A stretch of 64,000 nucleotides of DNA, taken from positions 42,470,001 through 42,534,000 of the forward strand of contig OX597814.1 of NCBI GenBank assembly GCA_951406725.2, in the 5' to 3' direction. The notes below the pieces were generated by a model that did no database searches, was not told the origin of the DNA, and saw only the letters and a program-made list of their open reading frames with translations. This document shows, in pieces, positions 23,338 to 45,694 of the stretch. The stretch comes from Octopus vulgaris. Taxonomy: Eukaryota. Every line of letters begins with the position of its first letter. The stretch's first letter is position 1. The translations under genes were made by a program, and so were the position numbers.

Positions 23338-23400
<63 letters not shown>

Positions 23401-23405
<5 letters not shown>

Positions 23406-24165
23406 AACAATTAAGGATAACTTCTTAATAAGGAATCTTAACAAGAAATTATCAGGTAGTTAGCGTGAAAAACCTCGTAAGAGAAAAAAATTTCGAAATA
23501 ATGTTTTTCCTTTTGAAAATACTAATTTATATTGTATAGAGGGCATTATTACACATAAATGCCTCACACTAAGAGGGATATAAGTCATTACTACCAAAAT
23601 TTCACTAATCTTACCTAATGCAGTTTTCAAAGCAGGACATTTAAAAAATGATACGATTAGTGAAATATTGGTAGTAATGATTTATGTCCCTCTTAGTGTG
23701 AGGCATTTATGTGTAATAATGCCCTCTATACAATATAAATTAATATTTTCAAAAGGAAAAACATTATTTTCGAAATTTTTTTCTCTTACAAGGTTTTTCA
23801 CGCTAACTACCTCATAATTTCTTGTTAAGATTCCTTATTAAGAAGTTATCCTTAATTGTTAAATTTATTCCGAATAAATACTTTTCCTACTCGACATGCA
23901 GTTCGAGAAAGCCCGCCATTTACCGAATATATGATTTATAAACATTTCCATGAGCTTCGCCAGAGAGAGCAGTTCTACTGATGAACATAGACGTATTTGA
24001 CGCGTTAAGTGTGAAATCACAGGTGATATAGAACTAAATTCATTTTTTAAATGTCCTGCTTTGAAAACTGCATTAGGTACGATTAGTGAAATTTTGGTAG
24101 TAATGACTTATGTCCCTCTTAGTGTGAGGCATTTATGTGTAATAATACCCTCTATACAATACAAA

Positions 24166-24171
<6 letters not shown>
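23401..24171 (+). mobile_element. Retrozyme/Penelope pLTR-like element: inverted partial copy plus ~1.2 tandem units of a ~426-nt monomer
   Basis: 23652-23745 recurs at 24078-24171 (period 426 nt). 23401-23651 is an inverted copy of monomer sequence. Contains an intact HHR, has no credible ORF and is flanked by (TA)n. Confidence 0.8.
23971..24035 (+). ncRNA. Type I hammerhead ribozyme, intact
   Basis: AGTTCTA-CTGATGA-ACAT-(20 nt)-GTGT-GAA-ATCAC-ag-GTGAT-A-TAGAACT. Helix I 7 bp, all core nucleotides present, AUA triplet, predicted cut after 24028. Confidence 0.88.
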
Positions 24172-24224
<53 letters not shown>

Positions 24225-25785
24225 ATGCATAAAATATAAAAACATATATGCACACACTCACATACATATAAAAGTAAGTAGTCAGATAAAGCGAATCTAG
24301 ATATGTAGCTATGTAGACTGCTAGCAATAAAACAGTTATACTTTTACTTATTTTCAGTTTCGAGTCAAAGATTGAAGTAAAATAAAATACTTCGATTTAT
24401 GAAGAGATTCAGAAATATTCGAAGTTATCACTGAACTGAATTTTTATTATCAAGTTACTACCTTAATTCTATTAGAGTAAATCCATCTATAAAGAATCTG
24501 TGTATATCTCGACACAAGACCGAAAGAATAATAATATCTTTAAACGTACTGTTTGGTGGTGGCAAGATCAACAAAGTCGTTCGTTATGTTATGTGAGCAG
24601 TGCCTGATGATTTTGCTTGGATACCAGTCTAGAAACATATTAGTGTATGTTTGTCCAAAAAGATGAAGAATGCAGATTCTAGGATTCGTAAGTGAAAACT
24701 AACTATGTCTTCCACTCTGAAAGTCAGCTTCATTCAATTTGGAATTTAAACGTTACAGTTATTTTATTCTTAGAAAAAATCCATATAATGGTAATTCGAT
24801 TTGCAAATGTTAATTAGAAAGGAAATACTAGGATAATGTGAATACTTCGGTGTCTGAAGATGAAACAAAACAATAGGTAGAAGAAAAAGAAATAAAAATT
24901 ATTAGATGAATATACGCAAAAATTATTTATAAACGAAATAGTTCTTGCAGCTCTAATATGTACTTTGATGCTTACACATTCAAATGTTGTCAGTTAGATC
25001 TTAATAAAATACCGCGAAGTAAATTTCAAGAAAATGTGTGTGGTATCACTATGTAGGTGATCAGATGAATCCATGAGTCTGTCAGAATAAAGGCTTGATA
25101 CATATGAACGCTTGTGCATACATGTATGCATCACGCACATGTAAATACAAATAGATTCGCATATGTAACGACATATATATAATCTGCATATGTGAATGCC
25201 AGCGAGTGAATGTATCAGTCCGTGTGTCCGTGATATGTGCGTGTGAATAATACATATATTCCAGAGCCCAATCGCATACACACGTGAATATACACATGCG
25301 TACACACACATACGCACACACATACACGCACACAAACAGACATCCTAATGTTGACTTATTTCACTACACGTATGTCTTTTATACTTTTGAGAGTGACGTT
25401 TTCACCCTGAAAACGTCCTATTTTCAGTCACTGTGTGATGAATTCTGCTATAATTGCAAATTTGAACATTTAGGATATATTAGATTTACATGTTAGCATA
25501 TTATTTTCAGATAGTTGATTAGTAAATTACTTTCATATATATTTTATGTCGTAATAAAAACTGAACTAGTAGCAAAACCACTATATAGTCCTAACTAAAC
25601 GCCAGCGTATTCATTTACTACATTATATTCTCCCAAAGACCACTTTTGCTATTTGCTTTAGCAAGAAATAAATAGACTAGAAACAATTCTGTTACATTTT
25701 ATCAGAACACTACCAGCTTATAGAAAGACCAAGCTTGTGCGACTGTTATTTTAACGGACTGCAGTACAGTTCAAACATTACGCGC

Positions 25786-29335: not shown

Positions 29336-32300
29336 ATTATTATATTTTTTCTTCTTTCACATTTGCTTCTATTTCTTGCCGAGTGTCTACCCGACTCCTA
29401 GGGCAAAGAAACTCATAGTATACATTGGTAGGCCATTAAACTAAACTCACTAGTTAGTTCATTCTTTTTTTTATAGAAATAAAGTTAAATTAAAATATAT
29501 GGCTAGTAATAGTTCTCACATCGATAATGATCTTCTCAATACGTGTGATGTACCAGTTAAGACAATCTTTTGCACTTCTTGCAGGGATGGTAAGCCAGGG
29601 ATCATTCTCATATAATTTTCGGTTCCCTTCTTGATCATTCCTAGTGCTCCTACGATCACTGGTATTGTAACCGCCTTGAAATGCCACATTTTTTCAATTT
29701 CAATCAGCAGGTCTTTATATTTTCTAAGCTTGTCAAACTCTTTCGCCGAGATATTATGATCACAGGGGATGCTCATGTCGATCAATAAGCAAACTTTATT
29801 GTTTTGGTCTGTCACAACAATATCCGGTTTATTGGCCTTGATGGTTCGGTCTGTATGTACTGGAAAGTCCCACAGAATCGTTACATTTTCTCCTTCAGTT
29901 ACAGCTTCATGGTGGTGATTATACAACTTGTCGGCAGTTTTGATATTGTAATGCCGACTTATTAGCCAGTGTAGATATTGGCCAACTCTGTCATGTCTTA
30001 ATTTATACTCCACTGGTGCTAAGACTTTACATCCAGAGATTAGGTGGTCCACTGTTTCAATCATGTCGTTGCAGAATCGGCATTTTGGGTCTGCTCCATT
30101 TTTCATCACATTGGCCTGGTAGTTCCGGGTTAATAGACTTTGATCTTAAGCAGCCAGGATGAAACCTTCGCTCTCTGCTTTTAGCCCTGAGCTCCGTAGC
30201 CACTATGGGTTTGCTTCTGGTCAAAATCAGCTTGTTTGCTACGGGCCACATATTTGCCGTGCAGAGGTTTCTCCTCCCATCTATCAGCCAATTGCTTGTG
30301 CGCTGTTTTCGTTGCCATTATTTTCACCTTCTTTGCAACAATAGCTGCCGTACTTCCCTCGGGTTGTTCAGTTTGGATATCCTGCACGAGATCAATAGCA
30401 AATTCTGGAAAGTGGTCTTGGCACACTTCTCAAGCCCAAACTCCATCTCGATGTCATCGCTGAATGCTTTCACAGTGTGCAATATGCCTTCAAGTTCATT
30501 ATCGTCTTTACCATAGAGTTTTAAGTCACCCATATAAAACAGATGGCTTTTTTTTTATTGGCAATTTTATACCCATACCCTGTTCTGTTTAATTCACTTG
30601 GAAGAGGTATTAGGGCTATGCAAAATATTAGAGGTGAAAGTGAGTCACCTTGAAAAATCCCACAGCTGATGTTTGTATTCTCTGAGGCAAGTACTCCATT
30701 AGAGTGGTATAGTTGGAGATTCGTATTCCACAACGACATATTGTGTTTCAGGAAGCTTGAAATCACAGTGGAAACTTTGAAGATATCCAGCGATCTCAAG
30801 ATCCATGGATGCGGTATAATGTCGAAGGCCTTTTTATAGTCAATCCATGTGGAGCTGAGATTTCTGCGCTTGTTGTGACAGTTTTCAAGGATCATACAAT
30901 TAATTAGCAGTTTATCTTTGCATCCGTATGGGCCTCGGCGGTACCCTTTTTGTTCAATGGGGAAAATATCGTTCTTCTCCATGAATATATATTTTTTCTC
31001 CGCCAGGATAGATGTTAGGATTTTATACGTGGTGGATAGACAGGTTATAGGCCGATAGTTTTTTGGAATGTTAGTTTCGTTATTCTTTGGGAGTAGGTAA
31101 GTAATACCACTTGCTAACCATTCAGGTGTTTTCTTTGGGTCTCTCATAATTCCATTGAGCAGCTGAACTAGCTTACTGTGTGCGTATGGGAGCGATGCGA
31201 GCCAGAAATTCGGCACACTATCTTTACCAGGGGATTTCCAAATATGGGCCTTCGTGAGTGCCTTTCTTAGGTCTGCTATTGTGATGTATTCTCATGCTTG
31301 TTGTTGTAAATTTTGGTAGGATCCTTCCGTTTGTATAATCCAGTCTGTATTTATGTTGTACGTCTTCTTGTCAATCCAAATCCTTTTCCAAAAGTTTTGA
31401 ACTTCTTCCATGAGAAGGGGGTCTTTAACGGTTACTTTCTCCTTCCCTATTTCTCTGTAGAATTTTTTGGCATTGGACGTGAACAGCTTATTTTGCTTGT
31501 AAAACTTGTTTCTCTTCTCAAGTTTTCGTATTCTTTGGGCTTTTGCTTGGACTTTGTGTTTCAGCGTTTCTTTTATTGATATCAGTTCTTCTCTTGGTGA
31601 GGATCCAAAGTTTCTCTTCATCTTTCTTCCTGTTCTGGATCTTACATCATTTCCACTTATTAGTTCATTTAATACTGATATTTACCCTCTCATAAATTCA
31701 ATCTCTTTTTCAATTTTACTTCTCCAGGTTTGATTTCTTCCCAGGTTTTGTTTTCTTTGTTTTTTCGGGGGCATACAGCTGGTTTCAATTGCACTAGCAG
31801 AAGCGTAACTAATTTAATTTAACTCAGTAAAATCAGGTTTTAATTCTTGTATTATTTCATTTGTTACATAGTTGCCAATTTTGATTTGTTTTTTATTTTG
31901 GTTTGTATTTGAGAGTTTATGAAGTGGTTCTCTATCATTCATACTTGTATGTCTTATACCTTCAAGCGTATTCAGGATTTTCTGCCTCATTTCTGCCATA
32001 GACTCTCTGTGTTCTTCAGCAAATGCGAGATCTTCAGTTACTTTTGTTTTATCATTTTCCTGGCTCTCTTTAACAGGTTCAATAGAATTTCTTGTATCTT
32101 CAGGCCTTTGCGTACTTTGGTCAGATGGCAGTCTTTCAATTAAGCCTCGTGGCGGGCTATTCTGTTTATCTGATTCTTCATTTCTTTTGTGTCTTATATT
32201 TATGTTATTTGCTGTTGCGTGCTTGATCGCGCTTATTTCACTGTCTGTGAGTCTGTTATTTCTAAGGATATCCCTCCTCACATTTGCTAACTTCTTCTCG

Positions 32301-32780
32301 TCCAAATAGGGCCTACTGTCTTGATTCCATGTTCTCCATATACTGTAAGAGTTTGCGGTGTGTCTCTCTTGAGGTGGCCTACCTAAAGCATAGTAATAAG
32401 CGTATATTACTTCTTTATACTCTTCTCGGGTCCATTTGTTCCGCTTACATTTTTCTTTCTGTGGTGATTGTGGTGGTGAACTTGGAGGGCTCGAGTTGGG
32501 GAATTTCCCGTTCAAGTGACCATCCATGTCCGTATTCGGAGAAGAGTTTGTGCCAGTTGATGACTTTTCAATCCCAGGCTGGCTCTTCCCTGGGGGACGC
32601 GCTTCCAGATTAACCATAGGACAATCGATTTGGTATACTGATTTAGTCTTCCTTTTAGTTTCCAAAAACATTTTGGTGCTACGTTAATGTTATCATTTTT
32701 GAGCTTTGAGAGGCTCGTGGGGAGACCGCCATCATTGCCGTTACAATTATAATCGTACCATTATAGCAGCCGTAGGCGGC
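29336..32780 (-). mobile_element. Decayed non-LTR retrotransposon with restriction-like endonuclease (R4/Dong/NeSL type)
   Basis: Frameshifted RT motifs (KNYRPITCL, WIDYKKAFD, GIFQGDSLSPL, YMGDLKLY, FGLEKCA), CCHC knuckle CRFCNDMIETVDHLISGC, RLE motif KPDIVV...LIDMSIP...KYKDL. The 3' UTR ends in TAA repeats and the 5' end abuts a TAA/TGA-rich tract. Confidence 0.92.
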
Positions 32781-32996: not shown

Positions 32997-33178
32997 TCCT
33001 ATTGTGTTATATACAATAAAAGATTTTGGATACTTTGTAAGAGATTTGTTTACTAATGTATTTTTAGGGTTTTTTCTTATATATTACACAACTTTTTAAT
33101 GCTATATGATGCACTCTGAATAATATTTATATTTCTTTTGTTTTACAGAAAGTGCCTGTCACTAAGGTTGTTAATCGG

Positions 33179-34401
33179 ATGCGTGTTCCCATGACGACGA
33201 AGGCTTTTGAAGTGCTATTATGGCTACAAACTGGCCTCGTTCTAGCCGTGGCAGTTGTGCTGCGGGTGACGTCGGCCGAATGCAAATTCCCCAGTTTTAT
33301 GCACACGGAGCAGAATGCTTGGGTACGAGGTTACGAAAAAGGTGACCGATTTGTGGCGTACTTTCAAGATGGTATTATGAAAGCTAGTAGTTGTCGTGAT
33401 CGACAATGTACACGATACGAAAGAAAATGTATAGAAGAGTTCCCTAACGGTAAATATATAGCATCTCACATAGAAATTGCTCATACGACCAGTTATGTTT
33501 GTATGGAATTCTTGCGTCGAGGTGAAATCATTGTTCAGCTAAAACAATCAGAAATATCTAAAACGAATTATCCAGATCTTTGTAATACGTTAATGTTAGA
33601 TATGTGGCCATTAGTACTGCTAGAAAAACTACTTGAGCACAAAGTTAGCTGCCCATTCTCAGGGGGTTACAATTTACAAATGTTTGATAGCAGTGGGTCT
33701 GCGCTATGCCGTGAAGAAATAGTTCCTATTAGGCTAGAAAGTGAATGTGAATCTGGAGAAGGTATGATGATTCATTTTAGAACGAAGGCTTGTATACACA
33801 AAGATTTAAATATGGAAGTAAAACAGAAATTATATTGTCTTGCACATTGGAATGAAGGCCCGTTCAGATTCATCATTCTTCGAGAAAAAAATCGACGCGA
33901 CCATATCTGGTCTCTACGTGTAAAAGAACCTGTTAATGAAATCAAAACCGCAGCTTTATTCATGGTGCCTGTCTGTGACACTGGGGAAGAAATTACTCAA
34001 ACGAAAATGTATCTGGAATTGAAACTTGATAAGTACGTGGTGTCAACAACCTGCGCCGACGAGTTCAAAGATTGCGCACAATACGTGCAGTTTTGTGATT
34101 CAGGGTATCGCCAACATTGCTCAAATTCATGTCGAGACTGTCGTCAAGACGTAATTAAATTATGTCCGTTTTCTGAGCGCTTGCGTAGCACTTGGGTGCA
34201 AAGCATGAAAAAAAATAAGCAACTCTCCATAAATATCACACATTACCAAATCTCTATTCAAACTCTTGGGATGTTTCACTGTCTGGTTGCCAAAGGTAAA
34301 AGTACACCAGATAGTGATGTTCTTTTACAATTGTTCCAGAATGGATGTTACCCAAGATACACATGTCTTCAAATTGAGAAAACAGCACCGTCAGTTATAA
34401 G
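33179..34401 (+). CDS. First coding exon of a secreted/cell-surface Cys-rich protein with an ShKT domain
   Basis: Acceptor TTTCTTTTGTTTTACAG ends at 33148. ATG at 33179 (or 33191), signal peptide ...LVLAVAVVLRVTSA/ECKFP, ~407 open codons of complex sequence. ShKT pattern at 34052-34141. Donor AG|GTAAAT at 34402, phase 2. Confidence 0.9.
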
Positions 34402-36383
34402 GTAAATATTCATTTTTGTTTCACTCATTAACATAAATGTCTACTATGAATATTACACATTTAATTTAAATATTTGTCCTAAACCTAATAAATACTCCTA
34501 ATAAGAAAATAGCAAAATAACAGCAATAATAAAATATAATTACTGTAATTGATCTCATTTTGATAACTTACATACGAATTTCGAAATATTAATGACGACA
34601 CCCACAAATTTCGTGGCAACCTTAGCTTCAGTACTGGAATGGGTCTCATTTGATCATCTTCAGAAAACAGAAAACAAATTAAGCATGTATACTTATCGAT
34701 AATAATAATAATAATTAGAACTACCCGTGAGGATCCAACGGTTATTTTGAAAATTGTATGATGAAATTGTATATTTTTCTGAAAGATTTGATTGTTATGC
34801 TGATGTGAAAATCCACATAAACAGTACTGAAGGGAAAAACCAATCAACCAATTAATCAATCAATCAATCCATCAGTCAATCAATCAATCAGGCAATAAGT
34901 CTGTTTGCCACCCCATCACTCTATTTGTCTGTCTATCTACCTACATATCTATTATTCTATCTACCTACGTACCCGTCTACCTACCTAACTATCTGCCTAC
35001 CAACTTACCTGCCTCATAGCCTATCTACCTACCTACTTGCCTACTTACCTCCCTACCTATATACCTTCCTACCTAGCCACATACATACATACATGCAAAA
35101 CTACATACTAATCTATATATCCGTCTGTCTATATATCTATCTACCTATCATCCTAGCTACCTATCTCTTTGTATCAAATATTATAGACCTTCTCCCTTTC
35201 TTTCACGATTTCCGTTTCTGTTCCCATTTCTTTCTTTGTTTCCCTTTCTCCACTTCCTCTCATTTTCGTTATATATACATCTCTTCATTCGAATCATAAC
35301 TTCCCTTAGTGACGTAAGTGAAATACACGTAAAATAACAGGCAAGAACAAGCATGTTCTTTATGTTGTCATAAATTCTTCTCTTCTTCGTGACGACACGT
35401 AGTATACATAGTTTTACGTGATTTTATGTTACACGATATATCACTCCGGGGTCTAACAACTAGTTTTAATCTCTTCTAGTGTAGGGCCTTTATGCTGTTA
35501 AACAATACTCTTTCTACTTTCGTATTGAAGACACCCTTCGGTATTTTGTAGAAATAAAGAGGCTTTCTGCACAATATCTAACCTCAGCAATTTAAGATCA
35601 ATCTTCACAAAGTTTAATTTCAGACTGCCTTTCAGTGGGACTTAGGAAGGCTCAATAATAACCGGCAGGTACATGGATTTTCTAATGTCTTGTATCCAGA
35701 ATGTCATACCACAACTTGGTATAATATTCTGCTTCTTGATTTCACTATCAGATGACCATGACACTCAAATTCGACTCAGCAATTTTATCAACATCTTCAC
35801 TGTCCGGATTTTATTTCTATCTAGTTTATATACCAAAGCTCGATAAACTTGCATTAGTGTTTCCAATGGCATGATGTCTTATTCCGTACCGTACAGTAAA
35901 CATAGTACTTTTCTGTGCATGCACAACGAAACATCTTATAGAAAACTTAAAGTATTAGCATACCAAAGCATTTGTACTGATTTGGGTCTAACTGTAGGTC
36001 GTCTGATGCAAGATGAGCTATAATATCATTTCTATTATCGTACGTTCTAAAATACTGTATATCATTCTCTGAATCCAATTTACGTTTCAGTTTTATTTTC
36101 TATGACGTTGTAATAATTTCCTTGATCTCTTCCTTCAAAATTCTTCTCTTTAAACAAACTCATCTAGACATGTGAGACATTATTGCAAGCATTTCTGAAA
36201 ACACTGAATGGAGAAACTTTACTTGGAAGTTTTGCTTCTTTTTCGCTACATCTCTCTATTTATTTTAATTTGATCTCATTAACACTGTAATTATATCAAC
36301 TAATTATCACCTCTTTAAACTAACTAGGAAATATTTTCTCTAGAACTCTAGACTTTATATTAGTAAACCCTTGTCTCTCTCTA

Positions 36384-40289: not shown

Positions 40290-41900
40290 CATCATCAGGG
40301 ATCATGTGGTTATAGCTATCTCTACAACTCTACAAATTCTTCAGTTATTATATATTGTTTCATCATATGTTTTGATAATTCCTAAGAAGGGCACAAGTCA
40401 ATGCCCTTATGTAGCAATCAAAAATCCTTCAACCTGAAATTTGTCTCCTATATTTTTCGACCAGCGTTGCTGCTATTATTTCTTTACTTCCACTGTTTCC
40501 AGTTTCCTTTTCTCTACATAATAGCCTTTAAGTTGATATGGTTACTTTTACTTTCACTTTTCGCATGACAACCCAGAGCACGATATTTATTTTAGCTTTT
40601 AGCCTCTTCCCAATTTCTGTTGATCATTGTTCTTGTTTCCATAATCTACCATTTATGGCTATGTTTTGATTTGTTGCTTCTTTTTAAGCCAGAGAGCTAT
40701 TTTTGTATTGATGTTTCGTAGGTATTCCTATTAATTTTCTATCACTTTTACAAGATATTTTTATTAGCCTTACAGCGAATGAATTATATTTTTCTAGTTG
40801 CATAAGGCTCCAGCCTCCATTTACGTGATGTAAATGCAATCCTTTTGCTAGATCTTATGTTGTGTAGTCTAAATGCCGTCATTACTCTGTGTTTTTTCTT
40901 CATAGTCTTGTTCGTTTGTTTAGACATTTTGCCGTTAACATATTAGATGAGCTTCTAAAAGTTGTTTGCCTGTTAAATTTTAGAATTAGCTCTGATTAGA
41001 CATTATCATACGGAGCTTATAATATTCTTTCTTAATAATTTCTTTTGTGTGCTTTGTAGTACTTCATTCATTGTTATGTATTTGGCGAATATAGCATAAT
41101 ATTAAGGCACTAACGTAATAGTTATACTGCACACACTTCAAGATGGCCTCGACATATTTTCTTATACGAATATCATAAAACTGTTTCTGGTAAATTCATG
41201 TACTGCCTGCAGTTATATTTCTAAGTTTATTATCTTCAGCATACAAACACAGTTGATTGTTCTAACAGAGCATTTCTTTCAGAGTTCATTTGAGTTTAAT
41301 CTGTTGCTTAAAGGTAACCCTATTAGAGAGAAAACAATTGACGACTGAGAGACCCAATGGAATATTTCTTTTCTAAAGAGGAAAAGTTTTATGTTTTCAT
41401 AAATCTGTCTTCTGCTTGTATTTTCAAAATTGAATGCTATTTATAAGGCGGCGAGCTAGCAGAACATTAGCACGTCGGGCGAAATGCTTAGCAGTATTTC
41501 GTCTGCCATTACGTTCTGAGTTAAAATTCCTCTGAGGTCGACTTTACCTTTCATACTTTCGAGGTCGATAAATTAAGTACCAGTTACGCACTGGGGTCGA
41601 CGTAATCGACTTAATACCTATGTCTGTCCTTGTTTGTCCCCTCTATGTTTAGCCCCTTGTGGGTAATAAAGAAATAGCTATTTATATGTGGACGTTTTTG
41701 GCCAGGAAGTCTATTAATGTGCGATTACAGTCGATTCATGTCATGCTCAGATCATTTCCCATCGCATTCTTCAATTGGAGATTTGTTCGTATGTGATTTT
41801 ACAGCATTATTTGTTCGTATGAGACTTCGCAAAATCATTTCTGCTCTTCCAGAAACATCTTTTTTTTTTACTATACTATGTGGGTCTCTAGTATTTGGAG
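40290..41900 (-). mobile_element. Very degenerate third RLE-type LINE fragment, interrupted by a SINE
   Basis: Remnants resembling LY..RKNGG.GL (~40810-40840), GIF.GDSLS (~41345-41365) and V.IAI (~40310-40330). Confidence 0.45.
41447..41676 (+). mobile_element. tRNA-derived SINE family B with 10-bp TSD
   Basis: GGCGGCGAGCTAGCAGAA head and GAGTTAAAATTCC B box; TSD GCTATTTATA at 41436-41445 and 41677-41686; closely matches 63071-63284. Confidence 0.88.
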
Positions 41901-44014: not shown

Positions 44015-44936
44015 ATTATAAGCGGTAGTATTGGTTGCATTAAATTCTTTCGATGTCGGATATGCAAAAGACAGTGTGTTGCCAAATTCTCATGAAAAGT
44101 AACGGCCTTCCCTCAACATCTACTTTTCTGACACCAGATATTTTGATAAATTTATTCAGGTTGTTTTAAGGAATGACGTATCCTCCTAAATAATCAAGAC
44201 TATTCATGGAATTTTCATGTATACAATCATTAAATTTTCAATTTCTACAGTTCTTCTACCGTTTAGATTTATTCCTGACAAGCAGACATGTGCTGCTGTA
44301 TCCAGTGCTAAGTATGTTAATTAAGCATCATTGACATTTCCTCCCAATCGTGTTTGTCAAGGTGTGAGGTATTAAATTAATGAATTCTAATATATTATAT
44401 GCAAGGCGTTACACAGACAACAGATAACATGTAAATGGAAGGAAAAACATGGAAATACTATTGAAAATAATTTTTAGCATTTACTTGAAAAGTGTTATCA
44501 GTTTGACTTTAAAATTAATGAAGTAGTTATTTTAATGAGAGGCATTCATTAGGGCCAGGTGAGCTCTGAAACTTATAATGAAACCGAAATCTTCATAACA
44601 CCTTATCAAATTAAAACAATTTATATTATTTTAGACATAAAGTTTATTTTTATTCATCTATTATTTTAACGGTAGCAGTCATTCTCCTTTTGTAATGTTG
44701 TGTCATCGTATTCCCAAGTTTTAAGCGATTACATTAGCTTTCTACTTTTCTGATAATAACCCTATCATCTTCGTATGGGAGGAAAGTAACATTTGTCAAA
44801 GATTGAAAGTACGAAACAGAACTTAACGTGCCACAGCATATTTTGATTAGTGGTCACTTTTTGATTACTCACTCACATTAATTATACGTACATACATACA
44901 TGCAGACATGTGTAACTCCATGCCAATCTTTCCCTC

Positions 44937-45036
44937 NNNNNNNNNNNNNNNNNNNNNNNNNNNNNNNNNNNNNNNNNNNNNNNNNNNNNNNNNNNNNNNN
45001 NNNNNNNNNNNNNNNNNNNNNNNNNNNNNNNNNNNN
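44937..45036. other. Assembly gap (100 N)
   Basis: Run of exactly 100 N, likely a placeholder length. Confidence 0.99.
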
Positions 45037-45694
45037 CCAGAGAAAACCAATGACCGTGTTAGTAAATCTCAAAAAAACACACTTCGTTAACTGTAACTTA
45101 CATCCCGTGATTAGTAGGTATACCTTGTTGAGAGATGATAATTTTTGTGAATATTGTCTTATGCATGATCCCAGTCTATCATCAGATCGGATTGTGTTAT
45201 ATAGCTTGAACTGCTCTACGAAACCGAGGCATATTAATCTGGCATGTTTGGCTTCATTCGATATCAACGCTCAAACCAAAGCAGTAGTTCTTAAAGCAGT
45301 CCATCGCAAACATAATTTTGTTTGCTGGGTTTTCACATCACGAAACAAAATTCTTGTGCTACCACCATCTGACTGTACCAACACTACAGCTCATGAACAA
45401 CCAATTATCGGAGGCAGAGAAGACGAAGCCTCGGAGTTTTCCATTATGAAAGATGTATCTCGAACATGTGAAGAATTATGTCTAACTTCAACGCCATCCT
45501 ACCTCACGGCTAACACTACGTTATTACCGTCAAGCAGCTATTGGGATAATAGTTCAGGTGTATACCGTCCGCAAGCAGAAACGTCAGCAAATTCCAAAGG
45601 AACATTACCAGAATGCAATCGCAAGAACACTTATGTAATCACAGTTATGTCTGTATTATTTTTTCTGATACCTCTTGTTTGTGTTCCCGCCTAA
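45037..45694 (+). CDS. Terminal coding exon (5' end hidden in gap): Cys-rich repeat, Ser/Thr stalk, hydrophobic C-terminal GPI/TM-like tail
   Basis: About 218 open codons. LACLASF...FVCWVF parallels LYCLAHW...IWSLRV in the first coding exon. Ends TYVITVMSVLFFLIPLVCVPA*. A pyrimidine tract immediately precedes the gap. Confidence 0.8.

Follow-up and report, generated by a model that had tools for sequence, protein, structure and literature searches.

What kind of element has carried a hammerhead ribozyme motif into a (TA)n tract of the octopus genome, and from what form of RNA was it copied? We have studied this question for a single insert in Octopus vulgaris, within a window of 64 kb (the whole stretch of DNA analyzed, to which all positions refer). 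Hammerhead-bearing repeats of the Penelope type are known already from mussels, corals and amphibians, and as such the locus alone is ordinary. An earlier note on this DNA had described a candidate retrozyme with a monomer of ~426 nt, left by reverse transcription of a circular or multimeric self-cleaved RNA.

The window was scanned for hammerhead cores having the correct topology. Only one site, at 23971-24035 on the + strand, passes both the medium and the strict setting, and the intact core with a 7-bp helix I that had been read there is confirmed. Helix I pairs 23971-23977 with 24029-24035, the core strings are CTGATGA (23978-23984) and GAAA (24013-24016), helix II has 4 bp plus a 5-bp extension, and helix III is a near-palindrome of 4 bp with a 4-nt loop; the triplet is AUA. 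The site thus contains the CUGANGA, GAAA and NUH elements and three helices of a type I hammerhead, with helix I open. Self-cleavage is predicted at 24028|24029 on the + strand, from the established geometry and numbering of the hammerhead core. Block-wise dinucleotide shuffles of the window (n = 300) gave a site in 0/300 cases at the strict setting, 8/300 at the medium and 33/300 at the loose setting. Since none of the strict scans of shuffled DNA returned a site, the topology is beyond chance.

Rfam does not recognize this motif. No Rfam family matched the window at its gathering score, and none of the 22 matches obtained up to E 10 was to a hammerhead family. The highest of them, MIR4208 (59.9 of 140 bits), is explained by nothing more than the hairpin created by the inversion described below. 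The pair of helix II adjoining the core is A-U, a position at which G-C is commoner in the hammerhead consensus, and under a nearest-neighbor model an alternative fold lies 2.9 kcal/mol below the active topology as drawn. Folding of the entire unit, in what is a decayed copy, was no more stable than that of shuffled sequences (z = −1.2 linear, −1.0 circular); the circles of retrozymes are described, in the passages on their structure in PMC7229834, as highly self-paired.

Five other CTGATGA-GAAA strings in the window failed the topology scan. A hammerhead-like core string at 24604-24655 (+), 430 nt downstream of the element, has a helix III-like hairpin and no helix I and fails the scan; it is possibly a decayed ribozyme of another family. 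A weak hammerhead-like topology at 41239 (− strand; helices of 4, 3 and 2 bp) appears at the loose setting only and is likely to be due to chance, shuffled windows equaling it at the frequency given above.

The ribozyme motif lies in an insert of ~770-772 bases that is flanked on both sides by (TA)n and is the sole copy found on comparing the window for repeats. The left tract (23344-23401) is the presumed insertion target; in the right tract (24170-24221) the first bases could belong to element or target. Between them two arms are joined head-to-head. The direct arm (23652-24172, + strand) is 521 nt long, corresponding to 1.22 units, and reads through the one intact ribozyme motif. It comprises a full unit of 426 nt (23747-24172, +; 31.7% GC, no coding frame) preceded by part of another, so that a pseudo-LTR-like redundancy of 95 nt stands at either end (23652-23746 and 24078-24172, both +). 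The two copies are 96% alike, their spacing of 426 is the period that the earlier note had stated, and the second ends 9 nt beyond the 3′ end that recurs in the family (see below).

The inverted arm (23401-23651, − strand) is a 5′-truncated copy of 251 nt that lacks the ribozyme. In unit terms it runs from 24040 to 24172 (= 23746) and on to 23865, being ~96% like the direct unit. The limits previously assigned to it, with a 5′ end at 24040, proved correct; of the 3′ product predicted from cleavage it is missing the first 11 nt, and its 3′ end adjoins the (TA)n tract at an AAATT motif. Both arms cross the joint between units colinearly, so that the inverted arm is circularly permuted, and the proposal of a permuted copy of more than unit length likewise stands. 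At the junction of the arms (23651|23652) there is neither microhomology nor any inserted base. Together the arms make an inverted repeat of 214 bp with a 38-nt loop, and apart from this loop the inverted arm is nested within the direct arm. The three copies of the 95-nt segment carry 2, 2 and 3 private changes. There is only one ribozyme at the locus, and hence a monomer could not be released from it by double cleavage.

A read-through transcript of 23401-23865 would give a near-perfect hairpin of 214 bp with the 38-nt loop. Octopus RNA undergoes A-to-I editing, and such a hairpin is a possible substrate for editing or for small-RNA production.

Does the insert encode a protein? Open frames across the element are short. 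A Pfam search of eight frames gave no match at the cut-off (one at E 0.068 was far below it), and no remnant of a reverse transcriptase (RT) or endonuclease was present in these frames, in keeping with the earlier statement that there is no credible ORF. A reading frame from the ATG within the ribozyme core was discarded, as it extends for only 16 codons. When the inverted arm's longest frame was compared with proteins, none of 16 candidates matched at E 1, which is weak evidence.

Coding sequence is found elsewhere in the window. A 431-codon open exon at 33110-34405 (+) belongs to a DUF7042/DUF7043 (ShKT-containing) gene, its 33110-34402 portion having 100% identity over 97% of the length to a predicted Octopus vulgaris protein, and a further likely exon at 44882-45694 is broken by an N gap. 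A decayed LINE-type retrotransposon lies in pieces at 29516-32683 (−), among which are an RVT_1 domain at 30524-31291 (E 9e-17) and, matching weakly, zf-RVT at 29519-30145.

We then asked if the unit exists outside this locus. Part of the stretch is present in 20 of the 24 sequencing runs listed, under four organism labels and from nine studies, half of its words occurring in none. Contigs of four runs were aligned to one unit (23700-24125) at a likeness cut-off of 85%, giving 1,754 contigs for run X1, 963 for X2, 34 for X11 and 17 for X18. X11 and X18 are guessed to be RNA and X2 DNA, and contigs are blind to ends, strand and circles. The numbers suggest that the octopus unit is a member of a many-copy repeat family. 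Connections between contigs were followed through 32 pieces of ~2,800, and loose ends through 24 of 181.

The head-to-tail joint (24125 to 23700) occurs in all four runs, with a short side of at least 31 letters only in X11 and X18. A head-to-tail unit with a fixed junction is therefore family-wide, being found in both arms of the locus and in 4/4 runs; as the joint is present also in X2, the guessed DNA run, it is no sign of a circle. One X18 contig of 366 nt extends from 23843 over the ribozyme region and past the joint with no ORF-sized insert. A second covers 23733-23868 at a similar depth (14.1 versus 14.4), which does not imply that the two come from one molecule. As far as it can be traced in contigs of the other runs, the closed unit is kept free of an ORF-sized insert. 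Among the 32 pieces, none bridges 23842-23865 under a 31-letter rule, and the only ones to span 23944-24000 are two longer variants. These are X18 records 18 and 19, with 52 and 62 extra nt immediately 5′ of the ribozyme; in X1 and X11, contigs lose their match at 23970-23974. From this we infer that the unit is probably close to 480-490 nt in many copies of the family, and that 426 nt may be a shorter form and not the family monomer. Thus the proposed monomer of ~426 nt holds as the period of the octopus locus, but not for the two longer X18 contigs.

The contigs also mark an end. Among the matches listed, 38 contigs of X1 and one of X11 stop at 23737 (= 24163) and continue into (TA)n, just 9 nt from the end of the octopus insert itself. 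Six family substitutions are listed within 23971-24035. Five fall in helices, where each keeps or adds a pair, one falls in loop II, and the core has none. The pattern lends modest support to the predicted pairing, given that it comes from contigs at least 85% alike and that the five helix changes are all transitions. Contig depth rises around the predicted cut (24015-24044) in 4/4 runs. We do not take this as a 5′-end signal, as helix II variants and the longer form cause contigs to drop out just upstream.

Matches were sought more widely. A metagenome scan with the ribozyme pattern gave 55 loci, and by blastn 0/55 resembled the unit; seven of them from one assembly (L001, L003, L009, L026, L043, L050 and L052) share a repeated motif with CTGATGA and GAAAC that is unrelated to it. 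Prokaryote genomes gave no match to the unit. A single short match in viral contigs lacked the 5′ half of the core and was taken as chance.

How does the octopus unit compare with known systems? It shares several features with the non-LTR retrozymes of metazoa, which according to the passages describing them (PMC7229834; bioRxiv 10.64898/2026.07.22.740005) are short (150-450 bp), low in GC, ORF-free and equipped with a type I hammerhead, and which occur head-to-tail, in many copies and with indel variants in length, the mussel units being 350-390 bp. All of the former features are present in the octopus unit and the latter in its family. There are differences. Helix III has 4 bp in the octopus and 1-2 in non-LTR retrozymes, and the passages on the latter in these two sources hold no counterpart of the inverted arm or of (TA)n targeting. 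The host of the octopus unit, moreover, is a cephalopod. An active retrozyme is defined, in the relevant section of bioRxiv 10.64898/2026.07.22.740005, as at least two units in succession, every one of them carrying a complete ribozyme. The octopus locus has one ribozyme in the 64-kb window, and with 1.22 units corresponds to a 'monomer' derivative in the terms used there by Li et al. Judged by its sequence, it would work like a non-LTR retrozyme without being an active one.

The layout points in addition to the endonuclease-bearing (EN+) Penelope-like elements. Those of the Hydra clade and Pen2a_Av of Adineta, as portrayed in parts of PMC8557442 and PMC3846280, share with the octopus insert a partial tandem and a head-to-head inverted, 5′-truncated copy, and with the octopus family the (TA)n target and fixed 3′ ends. 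The Hydra-clade hammerheads (PMC8557442, in its account of them) have a near-palindromic helix III of 3-4 bp, as seen here. In contrast to these elements of 2-3 kb, however, the octopus unit of 426 nt has no RT/GIY-YIG ORF, and the 30-40 bp tail they are described as having was not recognized in the insert, whose own two 3′ ends are separated by 119 nt. Its ribozyme also differs, compared by eye, from Hydra-1_Obim, the one octopus Hydra ribozyme found in the published passages, and two short motifs of the unit are absent from the supplement of Craig et al. (PMC8557442), in whose text line breaks can hide them. Lacking an ORF, the insert is not an autonomous Penelope-like element.

A third comparison is with the Poseidon element of Anolis carolinensis, PAc. 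The experiments reported in the relevant parts of PMC11167929 show that this Penelope-like protein, once purified, cleaves AT-rich DNA on both strands and extends each of them, with a preference for ATT, and that reverse transcription starts inside the RNA, downstream of the hammerhead; our model of the octopus insertion shares these features. PAc is autonomous and its ORF begins in the ribozyme, whereas the core ATG of the octopus motif opens the 16 codons already mentioned.

The conclusion that emerges, and that we hold to be probable, is that the octopus insert is a dead-end copy of a non-autonomous Penelope-like element of the retrozyme type, for whose movement a Penelope-like enzyme that targets (TA)n acted in trans. 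The sequence supports an ORF-free, hammerhead-bearing closed unit, retrozyme-like, that would have been copied through RNA from a template of more than unit length. According to statements in bioRxiv 10.64898/2026.07.22.740005, animal retrozymes derive from pLTRs and co-occur with Penelope-like elements, and the survey sections of PMC13282606 give 190 Penelope-like families for O. vulgaris, 31 with recently active copies.

We envisage the following course of events. A tandem source locus elsewhere would be transcribed into a multimer, partly cut by its own ribozymes. A Penelope-like RT/GIY-YIG protein would nick a (TA)n tract on either strand, and two cDNAs would be primed at internal sites of the RNA, at 24172 and 23865 in unit terms. 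Both would head for a ribozyme-made 5′ end, halting 49 and 11 nt before it, and the longer one would have passed one uncut ribozyme. Blunt joining of the two cDNA ends would then generate the head-to-head structure, which would subsequently decay neutrally by about 1.5% per arm over roughly 4 My (2-8). Speaking against this course, retrozyme dimers of Xenopus were uncleaved in vitro in 8/9 cases in the assays described in bioRxiv 10.64898/2026.07.22.740005.

How firmly do the breakpoints point to a ribozyme-made 5′ end? The inverted arm stops 11 nt short of the predicted cut, and the direct arm begins 49 nt beyond the predicted cut of the upstream unit. Under a uniform null, for one locus and post hoc, such proximity has p ~0.028 if a single end is considered, 0.056 if the better of the two is taken, and 0.014 for both ends within 50 nt. 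With p at about 0.03-0.06, the breakpoint near the cut is only suggestive of a 5′ end made by the ribozyme, as the earlier note had proposed. It also lies on an AAATT motif. Of this pentamer there are five in the unit, covering 5.9% of it, and three breakpoints fall on one of them (again noted post hoc): the 3′ end of the inverted arm (23861-23865), its 5′ end (24036-24040) and the family 3′ end (24163-24167). These may mark endonuclease or RT start sites, and an endonuclease nick is therefore a rival cause of the end near the cut. The portions of PMC11167929 on the Anolis system state that ribozyme cleavage is dispensable for insertion and that no reads began at the cut, which speaks against a need for cleavage; together with our having a single locus, this calls for caution in reading the near-cut end.

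Within the retrozyme-type reading two further choices arise, of which one concerns the priming. We lean slightly towards two-ended priming, as the junction of the arms is blunt. The competing account, in which the inversion is a single cDNA of the same family that folded back near the 5′ end of the RNA at the 38-nt loop, an endonuclease then opening it with a nick at AAATT 23861-23865, falls somewhat short of an even chance within that reading, and as an explanation standing by itself is less likely still. It would explain why the inverted arm is nested in the direct arm save for the loop, and head-to-head Penelope inversions are read as self-priming in a passage of PMC3846280; ATT, as noted, is preferred by the purified enzyme (PMC11167929, same passages). 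Both arms also have an allele at 24056 that is in none of the aligned contigs, making a single template plausible, but two RNAs from one source locus would share it equally. Fold-back would normally need microhomology, of which the junction has none. Moreover, in X1, X2 and X11 summed contig depth drops after 23864, the pattern expected of a start site used repeatedly, although contig depth is blind to ends.

The other choice concerns the template, and here we think a linear, cleaved multimer fairly likely. That reverse transcription instead went by rolling circle on a covalently closed monomer is unlikely within the retrozyme-type reading and doubtful as a rival in its own right. In its favor, the direct arm exceeds one unit in length and continues across the cut site, and an allele at 23654/24080 is common to both 95-nt repeats while rare in X1 and X2; retrozymes of mussel, coral and axolotl have been shown to form circles, for which a role as intermediates is proposed (PMC7229834, in the sections on these). 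A homogenized tandem transcript would yield the same picture, however, and the joint is present in DNA runs too. A circle has no 5′ end, so that the linear cleaved multimer is favored by a breakpoint at the cut; on a circle, the halting of both arms nearby would have to be put down to coincidence or to a stall at the ribozyme fold. A partial tandem next to a 5′-truncated copy in inverse orientation is moreover typical of Penelope-like insertions, for which (TA)n is often the target (PMC8557442 and PMC3846280, in their descriptions of insertions), and as such does not imply a circle. Of the original proposal of a circular or multimeric RNA, the template of more than unit length is retained, but the circle is not singled out.

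Might the insert instead be debris of an autonomous protein-coding Penelope-like element, a truncated pLTR in which the 426-nt period records a one-off template jump? We consider this improbable. One X1 contig does diverge from the unit over ~450 letters upstream of 23778, the layout is that of ordinary Penelope insertions, and the form of helix III and the (TA)n target resemble Hydra-clade elements (PMC8557442, in the parts cited above); a passage of PMC4209133 notes pairs of opposite-strand hammerheads 100-700 bp apart as truncated elements. But a one-off jump would not recur, and the identical head-to-tail junction is found in both arms and all four runs. The eight frames, as described, are devoid of RT or endonuclease remnants, and the by-eye differences from the published Hydra-1_Obim ribozyme extend to three helices. 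An autonomous partner with partly shared sequence is expected. Far less probable is a foldback or MITE-like element arising at the DNA level, or an artefact of assembly in a (TA)n-rich region, with a hammerhead present by chance. Assemblies are prone to error where long inverted repeats lie between microsatellites, and there are N gaps elsewhere in the window, yet a duplicated read would lack the private changes seen in the 95-nt copies, the ribozyme topology exceeds chance, and the inverted repeats, besides being asymmetric, have an internal and not a terminal position. On these grounds we rejected it.

The retrozyme-type insert is old and decaying. Its overlapping segments differ by nine substitutions in 599 compared bases (1.5%) and one indel. 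At the rate of 0.0036 per My used in PMC13282606, this corresponds to an age of about 4 My (range 2-8), or younger if assembly error or differences between templates contribute.

A search of the literature, with Repbase, Dfam, the Zenodo repeat library and subscription papers outside its scope, found no cephalopod retrozyme in print, and the supplement on O. vulgaris repeats (PMC13282606) has no mention of hammerhead, ribozyme or retrozyme. The family may already be held in the Zenodo library of PMC13282606, in bioRxiv supplements, in Repbase or in Dfam. The locus extends retrozyme-like elements to cephalopods. The role of the hammerhead in Penelope-like elements is called unclear in the discussion of PMC8557442, and the circular intermediate of retrozymes is presented as a hypothesis in that of PMC7229834. 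A family of many copies with mappable 5′ and 3′ ends could decide between cleaved linear and circular templates. Our most far-reaching suggestion, which we offer as speculative and hold to be doubtful, is that this is a very high-copy octopus retrozyme whose copies start at the cut, end at two fixed internal RT starts on (TA)n, and integrate as paired head-to-head cDNAs. If that were true, thousands of insertions would form a fossil record, in which a Penelope enzyme copies ribozyme-cut linear RNA and not a circle, and supplying that cut linear RNA would be what the ribozyme is for.
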